Shown here: piece after piece, positions 1-16,033 of the stretch
How the letters are laid out: every line of letters starts with the position of its first letter
Position numbering within the stretch: the first letter of the stretch is position 1
IMG/VR virus record: IMGVR_UViG_2737471845_000026
Span: 1 to 20,408 of that record
Origin: a virus
Lineage: Duplodnaviria > Heunggongvirae > Uroviricota > Caudoviricetes
Strand: one strand, 5' to 3'
Length of the DNA: 20,408 nucleotides
Translations under genes and position numbers: made by a program
Notes under the pieces: model-generated
Seen by the model: the letters and a program-made list of their open reading frames with translations, nothing else
Told to the model about the DNA's origin: nothing
Databases searched by the model: none

Positions 1-378
1 GAGCTGTGCTTCTTCATCCTGAGCTATGCCATCCTGGTCTGCAATATCCAGACACAGGCACAGCACATCAACCGCTTCAGCGGTTCCTGCCACATCAGCC
101 AGTTCACGCAAAGCCTGAGCATTCGCACTACGAGGCGACGCTTCATAACGGGCGCGGATATTTGCACTCATTTGTGCAATCTCACCGGAGAACGGCGCAA
201 AAGCAGGAAGTGCTGCAATGGTTTTCTCCAGTACCGCGATTTCTTTCGCGTCGCAGGTACCGTCAGCATATGCAATGGAATATGCACCCCAGATGGTCGC
301 TTCCACTGCATCACGGTTCTCCATCTTCTTCACTTCCGTGATGGCCTTGCGGGTTTTCTTTTTGAAAATACCTAACAT
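1..378 (-). CDS. TerB-like (tellurite-resistance TerB family) protein, N-terminal 126 aa only; C-terminus lies beyond the window start
   Basis: ATG at 376-378 (minus) preceded by AAAGGAAAAG. Translation MLGIFKKKTRKAITEVKKMENRDAVEATIWGAYSIAYADGTCDAKEIAVLEK...LCLCLDIADQDGIAQDEEAQL shows two ADG-x-D/E repeats typical of TerB-like domains. Not in the ORF track because it runs off the window. Confidence 0.5.
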   Translation of the reverse strand, partial: MLGIFKKKTRKAITEVKKMENRDAVEATIWGAYSIAYADGTCDAKEIAVLEKTIAALPAFAPFSGEIAQMSANIRARYEASPRSANAQALRELADVAGTAEAVDVLCLCLDIADQDGIAQDEEAQL

Positions 379-514
379 CGTGACTTTTCCTTTTAGTGGG
401 TGAGCCTCGCCCCGGGATGAGCAGCCCACAGAGAAAGTCACACTGACCATCCCGTAAGCTCTCCCCCTTGAAAGGCGCTGTGTTTTTTGATGTGCGCCTG
501 GCGTGGCTCAGATA

Positions 515-540
515 CAAAAAAAGCTCGCAGTAGCGAGCTA
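515..540 (-). terminator. Rho-independent terminator downstream of the 92-aa gene
   Basis: Minus-strand hairpin AGCTCGC-TACT-GCGAGCT (plus 523-539) followed by a run of 7 T (plus A-run 516-522). Confidence 0.5.
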
Positions 541-562
541 ACAGAAAATATGAAGCATGTTT

Positions 563-841
563 TTATCCACGAAGTATGACATTGAACTCATCCATGCCGA
601 CACGGCTAGCTATCTCGTTGTATTCCTCAACAAGAGCCTGCAATTCTGAATTAGCAGCCATGAACTCATCAAAAACCTTATGGATGGCATCACTATTTAA
701 TAAAACAATGTTCTTTCCTGAAAGGCGATCAGGGGTAGAAAATATAACTGTCAAACGACTAAAGGCCCTGGCTCGTTCAGCATTAACATCCTCAATACGC
801 TGTAACAAGCTGGAGCATCTGGAAATATCATCAATATTCAC
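563..841 (-). CDS. Hypothetical protein, 92 aa
   Basis: ORF with GTG start at 841 preceded by AGGAG (4 nt spacing); followed by the 515-540 terminator. No motif recognised. Confidence 0.45.
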   Translation of the reverse strand: MNIDDISRCSSLLQRIEDVNAERARAFSRLTVIFSTPDRLSGKNIVLLNSDAIHKVFDEFMAANSELQALVEEYNEIASRVGMDEFNVILRG

Positions 842-971
842 TCTACTCCTGCCATATGGATGATAATCATTTAACGCAAAGAGAAGAAACCCATTAAAAA
901 CACAAGTATCGATATCAGCACAGTAAATTTAATTTATCAACTATGAGAAAAAGGTACTTGTTTATAAAGAT

Positions 972-1700
972 TCATAAGATTGAAGCACAATTATGTAACG
1001 AAATATATTTTACAGGAGGTTCTCCATAATACCTGTGAAATACAGAAACGAAGTAAGATTTACTTGAGTAACCACACTCTTCTGCCACAGATCGCTTGAA
1101 GCAATATTGAAAATAAAGCATATTTACAGCAATTCGCATCCGTTCCTCAAGCAACAAGCGACTGAAACTATACCCTTCACCTTTCAATTTTCTTTTTAAC
1201 AAGCTTTCACTCATGTTTAACTGTATAGCAATTTCACCAAGCATCCAGTTCGCTGATATATCTGTTTGAATTATAGCCCTTACCTTAAAACTTACCCCCC
1301 TTAAACATCCTGACAAAAATAACGGTAACAGTTCATTTTTTGCAAACAAGGCAAGGCATGATAATCCAGTCATTATTGACAAATCATCGCAAGAATCCAT
1401 GTAAATACTATGATGATTGATTAAAGCCTTCGTCAATTCAGAATACTCAATGCCAGATATAAAATAAAGAGGAATATCAGTCTGATCACTAACATTCAAT
1501 TTGCACTCACGTTCAAGGTATTGGCTAACTACAAAGTCACTTATATCAGCAATTTTTACACTATCTGCATAAACACTGAACAAAGGCATTATATTTCTGG
1601 CAACCAACATAATGGTTCCAGGTGCCAGTGAAATCTTTTCTTTTTCAAGAAAAATATCTATCGGAAGACATACAAGGATAACGGAACAAGCAACATTCAT
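972..1700 (-). CDS. AraC/XylS-family transcriptional regulator, AppY-like (242 aa)
   Basis: C-terminal AraC-type HTH (ESLLKRKLKGEGYSFSRLLLEERMRIAVNML...AEECGYSSKSYFVSVFHRYYGEPP). N-terminus MNVACSVILVC resembles prophage-encoded AppY (MDYVCSVVFIC) as I recall it. Strongly AT-rich relative to its neighbours. Confidence 0.85.
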   Translation of the reverse strand: MNVACSVILVCLPIDIFLEKEKISLAPGTIMLVARNIMPLFSVYADSVKIADISDFVVSQYLERECKLNVSDQTDIPLYFISGIEYSELTKALINHHSIYMDSCDDLSIMTGLSCLALFAKNELLPLFLSGCLRGVSFKVRAIIQTDISANWMLGEIAIQLNMSESLLKRKLKGEGYSFSRLLLEERMRIAVNMLYFQYCFKRSVAEECGYSSKSYFVSVFHRYYGEPPVKYISLHNCASIL

Positions 1701-1736
1701 GATGGTTTATCCAGAGAAAGGTACATGGTTTATATC

Positions 1737-1765
1737 ATTATATACCCTAAATGATAATTTGCATG
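1737..1765 (-). promoter_or_regulatory. Candidate sigma70 promoter for the AppY-like gene
   Basis: Minus-strand TATATAAT (plus 1737-1744) about 37 nt upstream of the ATG at 1700; the -35 is poor (CATGCA/ATGCAA). Confidence 0.3.
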
Positions 1766-1786
1766 ACTGTTACATCAAGTTATTCA

Positions 1787-2836
1787 TCAAGAAAGTTTCT
1801 TCCGGATCTCCTTCAGTGTTTGTTGAAAACGCTCCGTCTCAAGCTCAACACCCATCGCCCTGCGGCCCAGCGACAATGCCGCTTTTATTGTTGAGCCTGA
1901 CCCCATAAAAAAATCCGCAACCACATCCCCCGGACGACTGCTGGCGGTGATTATCTGACGCAACATATCCGCCGGTTTTTCACAGGGAGGTTTGCCTGGG
2001 TAATACTGTACTGGCTTGTGCGTCCAGACATCCGTATACGGAACGGCAGCTGATACGGAAAAATAACGCCGCAGTGATTTATATTCCTCCAGCAGGCTGG
2101 CATATTGCCGGTTCAGTTCGCTGTATGTGCTGACCAGTCTGTGATGTTGCTGCTCCAGTTCACCGCGCTGATGCTTTTCTGCCGCTACACGTGCAAACAG
2201 CGCCTGCAGTTTACTGTAATCGGCCTCATTCGGTAACTGCCACTGACTGGTACCAAACCAGTGCGAAGCCATGTTTTTCTTTCCGGTGGCTTCCGCTATC
2301 TGTTTCGACGTTATCCCCAGTGATTCACGCGCATCACGAAAGTAAGAAATCAGCGGGGCCATGACGTGCTGTTTAAGTTCACGCCCCTTTGCCGCATAGC
2401 CGTCATTTTTTGGCTGGTATGGCCCCTGATAATGTTCGGCAAACAGAATGCGCTCTGTTGCCGGGAAATACGCCCGTAAACTTTCCTTATTGCACCCGTT
2501 CCAGCGTCCGCACGGCTTCGCCCAGATAATGTGGTTCAGCACATTAAAGCGTTCACGCATCATGATTTCGGTATCAGATGCCAGGCGATGACCACAGAAC
2601 AGGTAAAGACTTCCGGCGGGTTTTAATACCCGCCAGAACTGCGCAAGACACTGGTCCAGCCATTGCAGGTAATCAGCGTCGCCCTTCCACTGGTTATCCC
2701 AGCCCTCGGGCTTCACTTTAAAGTATGGCGGGTCTGTGACTATCAGATCGACGGAGTTTTCCGGTAAGGTCCGGATAAATTCCAGGCAATCAGCGTTGAT
2801 TAACTCACAACTGGATATTTTTACAGTATTAGCCAT
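1787..2836 (-). CDS. DNA amino-methyltransferase (N6-adenine or N4-cytosine, beta-class motif order), apparently orphan (349 aa)
   Basis: Motif IV DPPY near the N-terminus (LIVTDPPYF) and AdoMet motif I FxGxG near the C-terminus (DFFMGSGST). No restriction endonuclease candidate is adjacent. Confidence 0.85.
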   Translation of the reverse strand: MANTVKISSCELINADCLEFIRTLPENSVDLIVTDPPYFKVKPEGWDNQWKGDADYLQWLDQCLAQFWRVLKPAGSLYLFCGHRLASDTEIMMRERFNVLNHIIWAKPCGRWNGCNKESLRAYFPATERILFAEHYQGPYQPKNDGYAAKGRELKQHVMAPLISYFRDARESLGITSKQIAEATGKKNMASHWFGTSQWQLPNEADYSKLQALFARVAAEKHQRGELEQQHHRLVSTYSELNRQYASLLEEYKSLRRYFSVSAAVPYTDVWTHKPVQYYPGKPPCEKPADMLRQIITASSRPGDVVADFFMGSGSTIKAALSLGRRAMGVELETERFQQTLKEIRKKLS

Positions 2837-2975
2837 AGATCAGTAAGCACTTCTCTGATAGGCTCATACCGCTTTTGCGCAAAGCAGATGGGCCTGAGGT
2901 TTGCTTGTGACCCCAACGCATGAGCAGATGGCTGGCAGGTGCCGCTAACACCCACCAGCCGCCCATTACCACAAA

Positions 2976-3000
2976 TTAAAAAGCCTTCACTGCGGAAGGC
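2976..3000 (-). terminator. Rho-independent terminator overlapping the 3' end of the 65-aa ORF
   Basis: Minus-strand hairpin GCCTTC-CGCAGT-GAAGGC (plus 2983-3000) followed by TTTTTAATTT. Confidence 0.45.
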
Positions 3001-3184
3001 GTCTGTAACAACCGAACTGATAATCTGCCAGACCCGCCATAACAAGCTGGGTCAGTATTAACTGGCAGCGTTCGCGTGAAAGGTAAGTATTCTGCGCAAT
3101 TTCCCCGATGGTCGCCGGTTCGGTGACGCTTAATTCATTAAATACCACTCTGGCTGTTTCGGTCATATCCTGCTGTTTTAGCAT
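2987..3184 (-). CDS. Small hypothetical protein, 65 aa (possible DNA-binding fold)
   Basis: Internal ATG at 3184 preceded by AAGGGAAAAAG. The listed 111-aa ORF starts with TTG inside the upstream terminator hairpin, so the shorter start is preferred. Confidence 0.4.
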   Translation of the reverse strand: MLKQQDMTETARVVFNELSVTEPATIGEIAQNTYLSRERCQLILTQLVMAGLADYQFGCYRRLPQ

Positions 3185-3305
3185 GTCTTTTTCCCTTTTC
3201 TGGTTAACGTGACATACCAATAACTCTTGTCTGAAAAGCCAGCAAGCTGAAAGACCAGTATTCGCAACCACCAGCGCGTTTAACGTACTGCACCACTTTT
3301 CGGGC

Positions 3306-3330
3306 ACAAAAAACCCGCTCAATAGCGGGC
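3306..3330 (-). terminator. Rho-independent terminator immediately after the DUF2335-like gene
   Basis: Minus-strand hairpin AGCCCGCT-ATTG-AGCGGG (plus 3314-3329) followed by TTTTTTGT; starts 1 nt after the stop at 3331-3333. Confidence 0.55.
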
Positions 3331-3861
3331 TTATTCTTCTTCATTGGTATTAGGCGTCGGCATTTGTCGTGACAGACCAGATGCTCTGCCCATTATGAAA
3401 ACGGATGCCAATCCTATCAGATCAACAGTAATCAGCGTTCCAGCAAAAACAGTATTACCTCTCCAGGCAAAGACGGTTGCTATCAGCAAAATTAAAAGCG
3501 TTATCGAGTAAGCCATCCATTGACCACGCCTGTCTTTTTTTATTGTTCCCGTGACCGTTGTTTTCTGCATTTCATGACGATGAGCCTGCTCTTTCTCACT
3601 TCTTGCCATTATCCGCTCAGCAGCACCTTCAACTATATCATCGTATTCACGTAGCATTGATGGTGGAGGAAGCGGACCACGGAAATAGGTTTGACTTACT
3701 ATGGCTCTAAATTGAGGTCGCTCGAGGAGCCGTTCAAGAACATTTGGATTTTCAACCAGCTCCCCTTCTATCTCTTTAGCCAGCTGTTCTGAACTCTTAC
3801 ATGAATCGTTATCGTGCAGTGGCAAGCTGGCGTTTAAGTTTTCTTGCTCTGAGTCTTGCAT
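3331..3861 (-). CDS. DUF2335-like predicted membrane protein (176 aa)
   Basis: Central motif SQTYFRGPLPPPSMLREYDDIVEGAAERIMARSEKEQAHRHE followed by two hydrophobic helices (ITLLILLIATVFAW, LITVDLIGLASVFIM); recognised as the DUF2335 family from memory. Confidence 0.6.
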   Translation of the reverse strand: MQDSEQENLNASLPLHDNDSCKSSEQLAKEIEGELVENPNVLERLLERPQFRAIVSQTYFRGPLPPPSMLREYDDIVEGAAERIMARSEKEQAHRHEMQKTTVTGTIKKDRRGQWMAYSITLLILLIATVFAWRGNTVFAGTLITVDLIGLASVFIMGRASGLSRQMPTPNTNEEE

Positions 3862-4024
3862 ATGGCCTCATACTTGTCCGTAAGTCATCGCCTACAGCCT
3901 GGAAATCCGAACGTAAAGCATCAGCGTCAGATTTATGAACAACCAGTGCTGTATAATCAGTAGCAGGTATCAGGTCTATGATGCTACCTGCGGCGCGCAT
4001 GATTCTGCGAGTTGAGCGCAACAT
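3809..4024 (-). CDS. Hypothetical protein, 71 aa, overlapping the start of the DUF2335-like gene by 53 nt
   Basis: ATG at 4024 preceded by a near-consensus SD (TAAGGAGGTACGGT-ATG). Its C-terminal overlap region is Arg-rich. Confidence 0.5.
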   Translation of the reverse strand: MLRSTRRIMRAAGSIIDLIPATDYTALVVHKSDADALRSDFQAVGDDLRTSMRPYARLRARKLKRQLATAR

Positions 4025-4221
4025 ACCGTACCTCCTTACATAGTTAACATCTTATAGATCACCTTTGGGGTAATCTTAGAATGAGCCATGCAAGCTGTAC
4101 AGAATTATTTTATAGCGCACGACTTTCAAATTGGCGCACATAAAAGCAATTCCCCGTAAAAACACAGCAAACGAAGAAAGCAAACTATGCTGGAATCAAC
4201 TATGGACTTCACTGTTTTTCC

Positions 4222-4248
4222 GGCACAAAAACCCGCTCGTCGGCGGGT
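4222..4248 (-). terminator. Rho-independent terminator about 80 nt downstream of the Q-like gene (tR'-like)
   Basis: Minus-strand hairpin CCCGCCGACGAGCGGG (plus 4232-4247) followed by TTTTTG. Confidence 0.5.
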
Positions 4249-4296
4249 TGTAAAAATTATTTTAACGTCAGGCATAATACGCCCATCGTTGTGGAA

Positions 4297-4324
4297 AATT
4301 TACCACAGATTCGGGAAAAATCAA
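4297..4324 (-). promoter_or_regulatory. Candidate late promoter (PR'-like) directly downstream of the Q-like gene
   Basis: Minus-strand TTGATT (plus 4319-4324), 16-nt spacer, TAAATT (plus 4297-4302) with TG at -15/-14. With the terminator at 4222-4248 it would make a roughly 45-65 nt terminated transcript. Confidence 0.35.
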
Positions 4325-4329
4325 CAACA

Positions 4330-5151
4330 CTATCGCGTTACCTTCTTTAACTGCCACTCCGCCCATGCCTCTTCAATGTCAAACCGAACCACCAACGTAT
4401 CGTAAAAGCGCTTCACTGATTTTTTCCACGTATCAAGTGTAATAGCACTCGTCACTTTGCATATGGCATTAAATGCCTCCGTTGATGGCAGTCGTTCATA
4501 ACCACGACCGCCACAACGTTGGCAGTCCCTGATAACAGGCATCCCCCGTTTTTCCGACTCTTCACGATAAATGGCAACACCACGCCCACGGCAATCTTTA
4601 CAGGCAGTGGAAATCTCCCCCTTCCCTTTACATTCAGGACAGGAAACTTTCACCACCTCCCGGATTTTTTTCCATTCTTCCCAGTAAGACGGATACACAC
4701 CTTTCGTACACTTTGCCCATACTGGCGGCTTGCCATCCGGATACTGAACCTTGCTTGTAAAAACTTCGCTTTCAATAAATTTTTCCCCATGGCAACAGGG
4801 GCACTGCTTTTTACTCGCAGCACTACGGGCATAATCCTCAAAAGCATACGAAGCCATAATGCGCATCACTGCCGGTTTTATTTCTGCCGGAAGTTTTCTT
4901 AACGCCGCCACACTATCGCACTGACTTAATGCATAATCTGCCAGTAATTCTGTTGCCCGCACTCTGTCATTCATACTGATGCCCATTTTCCCCAGGAACG
5001 CAGAAAATCCCATCTCAGCCCGGTTCTGTGTCATGCCCTGTGCAGCCATCACATCAGTGATACTCAGTGCATCTTTTGATGTCGAGGCGGATGCATCAGT
5101 CAGGCCTGGCGATTTCGGGGAATAGTATTTCGGTAAATCTTCCAGCTTCAT
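4330..5151 (-). CDS. Late-gene antiterminator Q-like protein (273 aa)
   Basis: Sits directly downstream of rusA with an ATGA start/stop overlap, the canonical Q position. Multiple CxxC zinc-binding motifs (CPCCHG, CPECKGKG, CKDCRGRG, CQRCGGRG). Assignment rests on synteny and motifs, not alignment. Confidence 0.65.
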   Translation of the reverse strand: MKLEDLPKYYSPKSPGLTDASASTSKDALSITDVMAAQGMTQNRAEMGFSAFLGKMGISMNDRVRATELLADYALSQCDSVAALRKLPAEIKPAVMRIMASYAFEDYARSAASKKQCPCCHGEKFIESEVFTSKVQYPDGKPPVWAKCTKGVYPSYWEEWKKIREVVKVSCPECKGKGEISTACKDCRGRGVAIYREESEKRGMPVIRDCQRCGGRGYERLPSTEAFNAICKVTSAITLDTWKKSVKRFYDTLVVRFDIEEAWAEWQLKKVTR

Positions 5152-7340: not shown

Positions 7341-7496
7341 TTACTCCTCAGATTCGTAAGCTGTGAAGACAGTGACCTCCGTCTGGCCGGTTCGGATTCG
7401 TACCTCGCAGAGGTCTTTCCTCATTACCAGTGCCGTCACTATGACGGTTAAACAGATGACGATCAGGGCGATTAACATCGCCTTTTGCTGCTTCAT
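7341..7496 (-). CDS. hok: Hok/Gef-family type I toxin (51 aa), closely HokD/RelF-like
   Basis: Translation MKQQKAMLIALIVICLTVIVTALVMRKDLCEVRIRTGQTEVTVFTAYESEE is a Hok-family hallmark. SD AAGGAG 9 nt upstream. The listed 70-aa ORF is an in-frame upstream extension. Confidence 0.9.
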   Translation of the reverse strand: MKQQKAMLIALIVICLTVIVTALVMRKDLCEVRIRTGQTEVTVFTAYESEE

Positions 7497-7834
7497 AGCC
7501 AGCTTCTCCTTGCCTTTCGGCACGTAAGAGGCTAACCTACATGTGTAAAGCATGAAATTGGCCTCAGATTAATGTTAAGCGTCTTGCCGGACGCGTAATG
7601 TTAACTGGGGCTTTTCTCTGTCTGCCTTACAGTGGCATGCCCGAGGCAGACAGCCTCAAGCACCCGCAACAATCTTACCGACACCGATAAGAAAACGCTA
7701 TTTTTTATTGCCAGAACCTTCTGCCCAGGCTAATGTATCCGCGTCAGAACGGCGCAATGCGCTCGCCTGAGATACGTTTACTTGTCATTGGTGGCAACAG
7801 ATAACGGCAATTGTTATTTCTGTTTGTTTCCTTC

Positions 7835-14603: not shown

Positions 14604-15290
14604 TTTATCCTCCATTGAAGTTACTGGTTGAGAATGGAGACCACACGTGACAGCGTGTTGTCGTGCGCCGGACACGGATAAGAATCCGGCACTGACAGTT
14701 TACTGAAAGAATATATCCCTGAAAAGTCAGGGCATAACTCGAAAGCGCACGGCGGAGGTGTCTTTTCCTTAGAAGGCTTGTCGTTAGATTTCTTCGACCG
14801 TGCGCTTCCGGTTGTGGCACTCCGCGAAATGGCGCGGCGGTAAGTATGGCGGGGTTATCCTTACCCCATTAGTGGCACCGGGTTGTCAGGTTGACCATAC
14901 GCTTAAGTGACATCCCCGCTGCAACAACCCATGTTGATTACCTTTTGGCGGGTATCCGTTTTTTGTTTTCCCTTGTGATACCAGCCCTTTTTAAAGTGAA
15001 TTTTGTGATGCGGTGAATGCGGCTAAGCGCACGCGGAACAGTTAAAAAGGACAGTTGACATTCGTATTGGTTCTTATGGGTGGGTTATCTGTATCCGGCG
15101 TTAATTGTTAACTGGTTAACGTCACCTGGAGGCACCAGGCATCGCATCAACAAAATTCACTTCAGTGATGAAAGGTGAGAGAAAATGTTGAATGTAGCTA
15201 TTGAAAACCAGAACGGGTGGAATTATAGTGCACCTGCACCTCATAAAACGGGTGCCGGGATTTGCACCCCGATGATCACTAGAGCGCATA

Positions 15291-15312
15291 ACCGCGCCAA
15301 AGCGGTTTTTTT
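15291..15312 (+). terminator. Intrinsic-terminator-like hairpin plus U-tract inside the leader upstream of rha (possible attenuator)
   Basis: ACCGC-GCCAAA-GCGGT followed by TTTTTTT; embedded in a larger inverted repeat GCGCATAA...TTATGCG. Confidence 0.45.
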
Positions 15313-15478
15313 ATGCGTAAAGCGCAGCCACATTCAGATTATGGTGGGGCGTATGGGGCCGTTTTCGGGCGGGCCGGATTCTCTAGTGACCGGTAGTGCA
15401 AACCCTGTACGTCTCACCACCCATGAGATTTGCACCTACGGTGGTGAGTTTACCAACTTATCACTAGAGGCTGCCATC

Positions 15479-16033
15479 ATGGCTACTATCCCTACCCTGT
15501 CTCACCCTGACGTAACCATCGAAAACGGTCGCGCTATCACTACGTCTGTTGCGATCGCAGAGTTCTTTGGCAAACGACACGACAACGTGTTACGTGCCAT
15601 CGCAAACATTGAATGCTCAGAAAAATTTAACGCCCTCAATTTTGAGGACGTAACGTACACCGACGCCAAAGGCGAAAAACGTCCAATGTACCAAATCACC
15701 AAAAACGGCTTCGTTTTCCTGGTGATGGGCTTCACTGGCAAAAAAGCCGCTGCATTCAAAGAGGCCTACATTGCTGAGTTCGACCGCATGGAGGCAGAGC
15801 TGCGTCAGAATAACACCCCACCAACTGACAAAATAATTCCTGGCGATGGTCGCACTCTGGTTGTTCGCTTCGACGAACACGGCAATATCAAATTCACCGA
15901 AACCGTTCCTGATGGTGCAATGGTCTGTACTCTGGATACCTTCCAGTTTTATCTGGAGAAACAGGGATGGACACTTGTAAACCGGAGCGCAATTAGAAAC
16001 ATGACTGTCGAACAATTGCTGCGTATTAAATAG
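15479..16033 (+). CDS. rha: Phage regulatory protein Rha (Rha domain), 184 aa from ATG 15479
   Basis: Rha-domain signature VTIENGRAITTSVAIAEFFGKRHDNVLRAIANIE...ITKNGFVFLVMGFTGKKAAAFKEAYIAEFDRME; SD AGAGG 8 nt before ATG 15479. The in-frame upstream extension to 15185 is judged non-coding. Confidence 0.75.
   Translation: MATIPTLSHPDVTIENGRAITTSVAIAEFFGKRHDNVLRAIANIECSEKFNALNFEDVTYTDAKGEKRPMYQITKNGFVFLVMGFTGKKAAAFKEAYIAEFDRMEAELRQNNTPPTDKIIPGDGRTLVVRFDEHGNIKFTETVPDGAMVCTLDTFQFYLEKQGWTLVNRSAIRNMTVEQLLRIK

Follow-up and report, generated by a model that had tools for sequence, protein, structure and literature searches.

M.EcoGII and M.EcoGI are non-specific adenine DNA/RNA methyltransferases encoded by prophages of E. 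coli O104:H4 (PMC5778455, PMC7544214). M.EcoGII is prophage-borne, methylates any adenine, is unexpressed in the lysogen and is deleterious if constitutively expressed, and M.EcoGI, which is identical to it at 333 of 349 residues, is likewise non-specific (PMC5778455). Homologues of this type (92-94% amino-acid similarity, listed as "nonspecific") are carried by two STEC O111 strains whose methylomes contain no extra motif, and M.EcoGIII, the methylase of an Stx phage, is described in work cited by the same paper as affecting about 1,900 genes (PMC6602927).

A second set of described proteins consists of AraC-family regulators. GadW, GadX and YdeO are chromosomal regulators of the GAD acid-resistance system. 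In E. coli O157:H7, prophages encode the secretion regulators PsrA and PsrB (reviewed in PMC10877973), psrA being ecs1087 (PMC13502914). PatE is encoded by the O157:H7 prophage CP-933H (OI-8) and is provisionally equated here with Sakai ECs_0287 because of where that gene lies in Sp1, and AppY is encoded by the DLP12 prophage of E. coli K-12. AppY directly activates gadE (PMC10057817), providing a model of how such proteins plug into host networks, and PsrA, PsrB, PatE and AppY act on gadE and/or hdeA (PMC10877973; PMC10057817).

The window analysed here comprises the 20,408 nucleotides of IMG/VR virus record IMGVR_UViG_2737471845_000026 (positions 1 to 20,408) and belongs, according to the gene context in the window and in sister contigs, to a lambda-like (lambdoid) prophage of E. 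coli. As the original prediction stated, it contains neighbouring genes for an amino-methyltransferase and an AraC-type protein. They are two ORFs on the minus strand, matching PF01555 in the first case and HTH_18 and HTH_AraC in the second. The methyltransferase gene (1787-2836) encodes a 349-aa orphan beta-class DNA amino-methyltransferase of the M.EcoGI/GII family, and the regulator gene (972-1700) a 242-aa AraC/XylS-family protein of Psr/PatE/GadW-like type, present as a rare allele. Both are located 3' of the gene for the late-gene antiterminator Q (4330-5151, minus strand; PF03589, E=3.3e-49), which defines the late operon containing them, and 5' of the holin and endolysin genes (both seen in the sister contigs), so that the late-region placement proposed earlier is correct. 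Also in this neighbourhood are a 65-aa ORF, a gene for a DUF2335 membrane protein, the Q gene, a 92-aa ORF and a gene for a TerB-like protein. The 92-aa ORF (563-841, minus strand; phrog_2873, function unassigned), downstream of the regulator gene, is also found in the prophage of E. coli C311, which lacks the regulator, and it is followed by a strong intrinsic terminator (522-539, minus strand; -12.3 kcal/mol, z=-4.9, with 0 of 200 shuffles folding as well). A weak terminator-like hairpin with a U-tract (2983-3000, minus strand; -9.4 kcal/mol, z=-1.5) overlaps the stop codon of the 65-aa ORF, 5' of the methyltransferase gene, and its sequence also precedes psrA in O157. Rfam at gathering thresholds detected no RNA gene within 972-2836 and ARAGORN no tRNA in the whole window, whereas the O157 psrA loci precede ileZ and arg tRNA genes.

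The locus is an ordinary one, with two well-known kinds of cargo placed after the late-gene switch; what is new is minor and consists of a rare regulator allele and, possibly, a disabling mutation in the methyltransferase. The explanation that we favour, and regard as likely when taken as a whole, is that the two genes are independent cargo modules in the Q-to-lysis hotspot, a non-specific methyltransferase of the lytic phase and a host regulator of the Psr/PatE branch.

The methyltransferase matches the Pfam family N6_N4_Mtase (PF01555) over residues 29-340 (E=6.8e-41, 141.1 bits against a gathering cut-off of 26.7) and the PADLOC model MTase_II (E=4e-150). It is 90% identical to an ORF of phiP27 and, along its full length, identical at 289 of 346 positions (84%, with 92% positives) to M.EcoGII, for which the query was machine-read from the supplementary PDF of PMC11551740 and contains small reading errors. 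The order of its motifs is that of the beta class: the catalytic motif IV DPPY (codons 35-38, 2723-2734, minus strand) comes first, near the N-terminus, and the AdoMet-binding motif I (FxGxG), here FFMGSG (codons 309-314, 1895-1912, minus strand), comes last, near the C-terminus. D35, P36, P37 and Y38 as well as FFMGSG are invariant in a 15-sequence alignment, and FFMGSG aligns with motif I of RsrI, CcrM and 9c3u. DNA resembling its gene occurs in 2,188 of the 5,426 complete E. coli genomes searched. The window enzyme is a member of the M.EcoGI/GII family, from which non-specificity and silence in the lysogen would be expected. It is also an orphan, as had been proposed: when every neighbouring ORF in the window was scanned with Pfam, PADLOC and PHROGs, no endonuclease gene and no nuclease domain came to light, and the gene tables of the sister contigs, which extend into the lysis and packaging genes, contain none either. 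A Type II restriction-modification or defence system was considered and, following the PADLOC scan, rejected; no cognate endonuclease gene adjoins the methyltransferase gene.

The allele found in the window carries proline (CCT, 1988-1990, minus strand) instead of the family histidine at codon 283, within HPxxKP, the motif that directly precedes motif I and that reads PPCEKP in this protein. Histidine occupies this position in all 133 relatives (cluster representatives, 75-94% identical) and its equivalent in four PDB sequences (9c3u, 8urk, RsrI and CcrM), and presumably has a role in AdoMet binding. A second substitution specific to the lineage of the window is found at codon 109 (2510-2512, minus strand), which encodes cysteine here and serine in the sister prophages; this position is variable in the family (S in 107, W in 20, A in 4, P in 1 and N in 1) and is included in the 97-110 segment described as a dimer interface (PMC11551740). 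The HPxxKP mismatch affects a single residue of a protein that is in other respects a full-length beta-class member, and it concerns activity, not ancestry. Among the sister prophages, L003-L006 keep His283 and L007 and L008 share Pro283; the whole protein is identical in these last two, which indicates that the allele is inherited and is not a sequencing error, and exactly the same protein is found on 9 contigs.

Because the motif affected by H283P has histidine in every relative, the window methyltransferase is possibly impaired, and the allele may be weakened or dead. A stronger version, in which it is a loss-of-function or strongly attenuated allele (through H283P, with or without S109C) heading to a pseudogene, its family assignment being unaffected, is the most serious of the alternatives, although on the sequence we lean against it. 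Such disabling changes would be retained because even a leaky non-specific adenine methylase harms the lysogen, in line with the deleterious effect of constitutive M.EcoGII expression (PMC5778455). Besides the invariant histidine and the inheritance of the allele, this idea is favoured by the comparison of L003 with the window over 563-5151, where there are three base differences and two of them are the two non-synonymous changes in the methyltransferase. Nevertheless, the reading frame is intact, and, with 23% of the segment taken up by this gene, it is not statistically unusual for it to receive two of the three substitutions (about P=0.13, binomial estimate).

The regulator, the other module in the explanation that we favour, matches the Pfam families HTH_18 (43.7 bits against 33.6) and, in two stretches, HTH_AraC (44 bits against 26.6), as well as phrog_1450 (E=3.7e-74), and its double helix-turn-helix DNA-binding domain (codons 138-233, 1002-1289, minus strand) has the DNA-binding domain of GadX (3mkl, E=5e-18) as best PDB match. 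It is 56% identical over 234 aa to Sakai ECs1087 (psrA, from record NC_002695.2; E=8e-88) and 63% identical to its nearest E. coli relatives, whereas identity to GadW is 34.6%, to YdeO 28.7% and to AppY 27.6%, and its scores are far below the NCBIfam equivalog cut-offs for YdeO (95.6 bits against 348) and GadX (82.9 bits against 500). The earlier designation of this protein as AppY-like is therefore only partly apt: it is a prophage-encoded AraC-family protein of the same group, but its similarity to AppY is much lower than that to PsrA and lower than that to GadW. An orthologue of AppY was rejected as a candidate, because identity is higher to GadW and YdeO and the position in the prophage is different. 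The regulator would belong to the GadW/GadX/YdeO/AppY group and, within it, be a divergent representative of the Psr/PatE branch found in prophages, for which no formal identity threshold exists. Members of its family are found between Q and the lysis genes in Sakai, Xuzhou21, SMBL, HY220605, L017-L019 and L021, while the L020 locus has a holin gene downstream and no Q upstream. In seven loci other than the window they are placed between Q and the holin gene, adjoining several different Q types.

Over residues 135-242, which include the DNA-binding domain, the regulator shows 66-73% identity to Psr-type proteins and retains both recognition-helix regions. In the N-terminal domain its identity to relatives is no more than 45-57%, suggesting that its signal and partners could differ; with 56% overall identity to ECs1087, the same regulon would not be guaranteed. 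The allele is absent from the 5,426 complete E. coli genomes searched, and in a collection of 5.8 billion proteins nothing is more than 63% identical to it, save one 98%-identical variant. It is conceivable, though we think it improbable, that it represents a new Psr subgroup with another signal or host regulon and that H283P has inactivated the neighbouring methyltransferase in a single recent sublineage. If so, H283P would illustrate how selection in nature acts against a toxic phage methylase carried by a resident prophage.

The regulator gene is AT-rich, as originally described, with 34.7% GC (29.6% at third codon positions) compared with 51.1% for the methyltransferase gene and 47.7% for the window, and the lowest GC value of the window in 729-bp segments (33.6%, about 3 sd below the mean) falls on it. 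The spacer between both genes (1701-1786, minus strand; 86 nt, 30.2% GC) carries its candidate promoter, TATATAAT, at 1744-1737 on the minus strand, 36 nt 5' of the ATG, which had also been predicted and which includes the consensus -10 hexamer TATAAT (1737-1742, minus strand). TATAAT or TATACT occurs at the aligned -10 position in 7 of 8 upstream regions of AraC-family genes, and in the eighth (the P0046 locus) TATACT lies a few bases away from it; the first two bases of the box are invariant columns, with a mean column identity of only 59% in these eight regions. This conservation of the -10 box, and of its distance from the start codon, across the eight loci of the family supports the existence of a promoter specific to the regulator. 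No good -35 box was found at 17-nt spacing from 1737-1742, and a generic promoter scan gave 9 sites against 7.2 +/- 3.0 in shuffled sequences, which is not an enrichment, so that the argument for this promoter comes solely from cross-locus conservation. The spacer contains no terminator-like site and no unusual RNA fold (z=-0.24), and the one between the regulator gene and the 92-aa ORF contains no terminator or stable RNA structure (z=-0.75).

In every locus examined, the regulator gene lies inside the late operon, directly 5' of the lysis genes. This position would also suit a protein that mainly controls phage functions (late genes, lysis timing or superinfection exclusion) and not host acid resistance, and, as there is no strong terminator between the gene and the late genes upstream, its product would be expected late in infection as well. 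We nevertheless consider this reading quite unlikely: every characterised relative (PsrA, PsrB, PatE, AppY, GadW, GadX and YdeO) targets promoters of the host GAD regulon, the phage layout does not require the gene, which is absent from the otherwise near-identical C311 prophage, and low GC together with an own promoter is typical of lysogenic-conversion cargo. By analogy with PsrA, PsrB, PatE and AppY, the earlier suggestion of a regulator of a kind known to cross-regulate host loci appears well founded.

An epigenetic role of the orphan methyltransferase, active in the lysogen, marking a specific motif and altering host expression, had also been suggested. The enzyme of the Stx phage, with its effect on some 1,900 genes as cited in PMC6602927, sets a precedent among prophage methylases, and the window gene is intact and of a common kind; however, its closest characterised enzymes are non-specific, unexpressed in the lysogen and harmful when expressed, the STEC strains with homologues show no extra methylation motif, a promoter scan of the region upstream of the gene gave no promoter-like site, and the window allele carries H283P. 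We consider such a role very unlikely, given that the M.EcoGI/GII family is non-specific and silent in lysogens. For the same reasons a motif-seeking methylome of the lysogen would be uninformative, a warning that applies to M.EcoGI/GII methylases in general: the finding of no methylation motif attributable to the gene, which the original prediction held to count against it, is, by analogy with the characterised members, the expected outcome for this family.

The independence of the two modules is shown by their distribution. Window positions 1-882 and 1817-3329 are matched at 91-93% in E. coli C311 by a prophage (L002) that has an unrelated filler of about 0.5 kb in place of an AT-rich replaceable cassette (883-1816, minus strand; 33.8% GC) formed by the last 30 nt or so of the methyltransferase gene, the spacer, the regulator gene and about 90 nt downstream. 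A simple deletion in C311 was rejected, because the filler has no AraC remnant (best tblastn E=0.06). Thus, the methyltransferase is found without the regulator in C311, the regulator without the methyltransferase in O157 Xuzhou21, Sakai Sp4, L018, L019, L020 and L021, and both adjoin in the window, SMBL, L017 and the sister contigs, this separate occurrence in related prophages being what identifies them as independent modules at a known cargo hotspot. That they form one functional unit, such as a methylation-sensitive switch, is most improbable, since these separate occurrences and a difference in GC content of 16 percentage points outweigh their common strand, the 86-nt distance kept wherever they adjoin and a cassette boundary lying inside the 3' end of the methyltransferase gene.

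In the scheme of two independent modules, the methyltransferase would be silent in the lysogen, as in the rest of its family, and its layout, without an own promoter and behind terminators downstream of Q, suggests that its transcription would occur only in lytic growth, by read-through of Q-modified RNA polymerase. It would then methylate the adenines of replicating phage DNA without sequence specificity, as family members do, giving the DNA of the progeny broad protection when it meets the restriction systems of the next host, a step that may be missing in this lineage if the H283P allele is weakened or dead. The regulator would have its own sigma-70 promoter, in keeping with the conserved -10 box, probably silenced by H-NS and dependent on conditions. 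From what its relatives do, it is predicted to bind AT-rich sites in promoters of host acid-resistance genes, gadE and hdeA among them, increasing acid resistance. [quoted passage not shown]

For the field this changes little, because it is one more case of a well-described cargo hotspot 3' of Q in lambdoid/Stx-type prophages of E. coli. Annotation can be improved from "DNA-methyltransferase" to M.EcoGI/GII-family methylase and from "helix-turn-helix domain-containing protein" to Psr-family regulator. The H283P allele and the sister prophages with H283 constitute a natural pair for the role of an invariant histidine in beta-class methylases, and, if the regulator activates gadE like its relatives, acid tolerance could be changed in bacteria that carry this rare prophage.

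Compared with the systems described, the window methyltransferase resembles M.EcoGII in its 349 aa, in the order DPPY, target-recognition region and FxGxG, and in being carried, without a cognate endonuclease, by a lambdoid prophage and belonging to a kind common across E. coli genomes, although it differs in H283P, S109C and a C-terminal tail that reads RKKLS and not QDLIV. Like PsrA, the regulator has about 240 aa, an MxVxCSV N-terminus, AT-rich coding DNA and 66% identity in residues 135-242, and its gene follows Q and a conserved 65-aa ORF, with the -10 box equally far from the start codon; on the other hand, its identity to PsrA is only 56% over the whole protein and 45% over the N-terminal domain, and its gene is preceded by the methyltransferase gene and followed by the 92-aa ORF and not by the tRNA genes ileZ-argN-argO. 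It shares with PatE, which itself activates gadE and hdeA, the condition of prophage AraC-like protein and the conserved position of the -10 box (in the upstream region of ECs_0287), but it is only 36% identical to it, and the PatE gene is at the end of a degraded prophage and not after Q. AppY is also a prophage protein of the GadW/YdeO/AppY group, although identity in residues 135-242 is only 35% and appY is located at the far end of DLP12, beside ompT, and not in the Q-to-lysis region. Finally, the regulator aligns along its full length with GadW and is covered by the YdeO model over residues 1-238, but it is phage-borne, whereas GadW, GadX and YdeO are chromosomal.

The window is a segment of an E. 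coli lambdoid prophage that runs from the integrase to the late region. In its right half lie the integrase, the excisionase, an exonuclease VIII-like gene and the Rha/Ash antirepressor on the plus strand, together with a cI-type repressor, and the minus strand encodes YdaS/YdaT, the replication genes, DUF968 (NinG-like), RusA and then Q (4330-5151), the late-gene antiterminator. Q is followed, on the same strand, by a 71-aa ORF (3809-4024; phrog_26284) that overlaps by 53 nt the start of a DUF2335 membrane protein gene (3331-3861), a conserved 65-aa ORF (2987-3184), the methyltransferase gene (1787-2836), the AraC-type regulator gene (972-1700) and a 92-aa ORF (563-841; phrog_2873, E=3e-46) that starts with GTG and has a good Shine-Dalgarno sequence (AGGAG). 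The strongest terminator of the region (539-522, minus strand) comes next, and beyond it lies a minus-strand TerB-like gene, incomplete at the left end of the window. Contigs with an identical regulator extend on into a DUF3927 gene, holins, endolysin, terminase and head or tail genes; this continuation into lysis and packaging genes, and the position of both ORFs downstream of Q on the minus strand, confirm their original description as late-region cargo.

Other elements were recognized in this layout. Q (273 aa) contains two PF03589 stretches and a match to a DnaJ-type CXXCXGXG zinc finger. A sok antitoxin RNA (7494-7665, minus strand; Rfam, 115 bits), upstream of the DUF968 gene, indicates a type I toxin-antitoxin locus of the hok/sok kind, where a HOK_GEF gene is called in sister contigs. 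On the plus strand, the Rfam families isrK (15236-15312) and C4 antisense RNA (15337-15424) fall within the 5' portion of the ORF for the Ash/Rha antirepressor (15185-16033), an arrangement resembling the immI antirepressor control module of P1/P7 type, here in a lambdoid prophage.

The methyltransferase matches Pfam N6_N4_Mtase (E=6.8e-41) and has the motif order of the beta class, with DPPY at residues 35-38 and FFMGSG at 309-314; among solved structures it is nearest to beta-class adenine methylases (9c3u/8urk, M.RsrI, CcrM, DpnA and MboIIA). It is identical to M.EcoGII, also of 349 aa, in 289 of 346 positions (84%, using the M.EcoGII sequence from the machine-read supplement of PMC11551740), to an ORF of the Stx2e phage phiP27 in 90%, and to the methylases of several Stx2 phages and phage cdtI in 80-85%. 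Experiments showed that M.EcoGII methylates adenine whatever the surrounding sequence, and M.EcoGI, identical to it in 333 of 349 residues, is likewise non-specific (PMC5778455). In two STEC O111 strains, homologues with 92-94% amino-acid similarity are classed as "nonspecific", and these strains showed no additional methylation motif (PMC6602927). Similar DNA is present in 2,188 of the 5,426 complete E. coli genomes, in up to seven places per genome, and the protein cluster at 90% identity has 3,716 member sequences. By homology, then, this gene encodes a late methylase of the well-characterized M.EcoGI/GII family rather than a novel enzyme with an undiscovered target motif. Its orphan status holds, since scans of all neighbouring ORFs with Pfam, PADLOC and PHROGs gave no nuclease match. 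For such a family, the absence of an attributable motif, which had been proposed as evidence against the original prediction, would be the expected result, and a motif-seeking methylome comparison of the lysogen would be uninformative.

The M.EcoGII gene is likewise prophage-borne; it is silent in the lysogen and harmful under constitutive expression, and the authors of that study proposed that it is turned on at prophage excision (PMC5778455). In the window, the methyltransferase gene lies downstream of Q, without any promoter-like site (promoter scan) between the 65-aa ORF and its start codon, and behind a weak hairpin with a U-tract (3000-2983, minus strand; -9.4 kcal/mol) over the 65-aa ORF stop codon, so that the simplest model would be synthesis by Q-dependent read-through in lytic growth, which agrees with the lack of M.EcoGI/GII expression reported for lysogens.

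Residue 283 of the methyltransferase (1988-1990, minus strand), just before motif I, is a proline where relatives read HPCEKP. Histidine occupies this position in 133 of 133 aligned cluster representatives (75-94% identical) and in all four printed PDB alignments (9c3u, 8urk, RsrI and CcrM, each HPTQKP). A second change, S109C, maps to 2510-2512 (minus strand). Four sister prophages with an identical regulator keep His283 and Ser109, and among the compared prophages with this regulator only the window and two contigs (L007 and L008) have Pro283 and Cys109. One of the four, L003, differs from the window by three bases over the 4.6 kb from orf92 to Q, two of them being the non-synonymous changes H283P and S109C. 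This pattern would fit a recent loss or weakening of activity in an enzyme that may be toxic, the counts being too small for significance.

The regulator gene is an exchangeable cassette: the C311 prophage of E. coli aligns with the window at 91-93% over 1-882 and 1817-3329 and has 883-1816 swapped for an unrelated filler of ~0.5 kb, in which no AraC remnant was found. The right boundary of the cassette falls inside the last ~30 nt of the methyltransferase gene, which explains the lineage-specific methyltransferase C-termini seen in alignment. At other loci of the family, the regulator gene occupies the same Q-holin slot beside several unrelated Q types, with or without the methyltransferase; the two are thus independent modules at a recombination hotspot and not a functional pair. 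In Sakai Sp4 and Xuzhou21, where this locus lacks the methyltransferase, sequence shared with the window after the 65-aa ORF leads directly to the psrA promoter region. The shared stretch, a terminator-like hairpin plus ~50 nt after the 65-aa ORF, lies at ~2940-3000 in the window and, for O157 Sakai and Xuzhou21, at L015 ~28540-28620 and L010 ~7732-7810; the methylase comes next in the window and a psrA-type gene directly next in the two O157 strains. This stretch marks a precise module junction. The prophage of E. coli HY220605 (L011, 6752-6916 and 8293-9351) contains an intact methylase followed by tRNA-Ile, tRNA-Arg, a TolA-like gene, a methylase remnant (a 165-nt 3' piece of a second methylase gene) and an AraC gene, an arrangement suggesting that recombination within methylase genes shuffles cargo blocks.

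As originally noted, the regulator is AT-rich: its coding sequence (34.7% GC, GC3 29.6%) is the lowest-GC stretch of the whole window (47.7%; methyltransferase, 51.1%). The candidate promoter originally noted, TATATAAT at 1744-1737 (minus strand), includes a consensus TATAAT (1742-1737); the -35 region is poor, and a generic promoter scan showed no enrichment over shuffles. Eight upstream regions were aligned, from the 63% relatives to the 36-41% clade, including psrA and ECs_0287; TATAAT or TATACT occurs at one alignment position in seven, and in the eighth (the P0046 locus) TATACT lies a few bases off. Of the only seven columns that are invariant, three are the ATG and two the opening bases of the hexamer. 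Such conservation favours a sigma-70 promoter belonging to the regulator gene itself, in keeping with a role in lysogenic conversion. No terminator was found between the regulator and the 92-aa ORF by terminator search and RNA folding; this ORF is probably co-transcribed with the regulator, and the terminator at 539-522 probably ends this transcript.

An assembly collection lists this exact regulator protein in 33 blocks (draft E. coli assemblies and metagenomes), and its allele is present in none of the 5,426 complete E. coli genomes, where all 1,148 matching records have 60-80% nucleotide identity. A 98% variant aside, its nearest match among 5.8 billion protein sequences has 63% identity, and related genes occur in 1,147 of the complete genomes. 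The regulator is a rare and divergent representative of a widespread family, and this allele and the H283P methylase variant are the only, mildly, new items at the locus. The original observation stands and its interpretation does so in part, both genes being of known kinds.

The regulator contains an AraC/XylS double helix-turn-helix domain, and among PDB entries it best matches the DNA-binding domain of GadX (E=5e-18) and, after that, Rns, CsvR and ToxT. The YdeO model (NCBIfam) aligns end to end, yet with 95.6 bits against an equivalog cut-off of 348. In pairwise comparisons it is 63% identical to the nearest E. coli prophage proteins (strains SMBL and HY220605; P0002, P0003), 54-57% to O157:H7 proteins including Sakai ECs1087, 36-42% to P0044, P0046 and Sakai ECs_0287, 34.6% to GadW, 28.7% to YdeO and 27.6% to AppY. 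Identity to Psr-type proteins is 66-73% over residues 135-242, including the DNA-binding domain, and 45-57% over residues 1-134, and both recognition-helix regions (SESLLKxKLK and CGYSSxSYF) are held in common. O157 genomes have two related copies of the family, and identities to "PsrA" depend on the copy meant: psrA is placed at z1789/OI-50 in EDL933 (PMC10877973) and is ecs1087 of prophage Sp4 in Sakai (PMC13502914). The label AppY-like is therefore valid for the broad GadW/YdeO/AppY group and not for AppY itself, PsrA and PsrB being the closest characterized relatives, and the protein is a prophage regulator of the known Psr/PatE family. PsrA, PsrB and PatE activate gadE, yhiF and/or hdeA, increasing acid resistance and indirectly repressing type III secretion (PMC10877973), and gadE is a direct activation target of AppY (PMC10057817), so it is predicted, with moderate confidence, that this regulator would cross-regulate host loci in the same manner as PsrA, PsrB, PatE and AppY.
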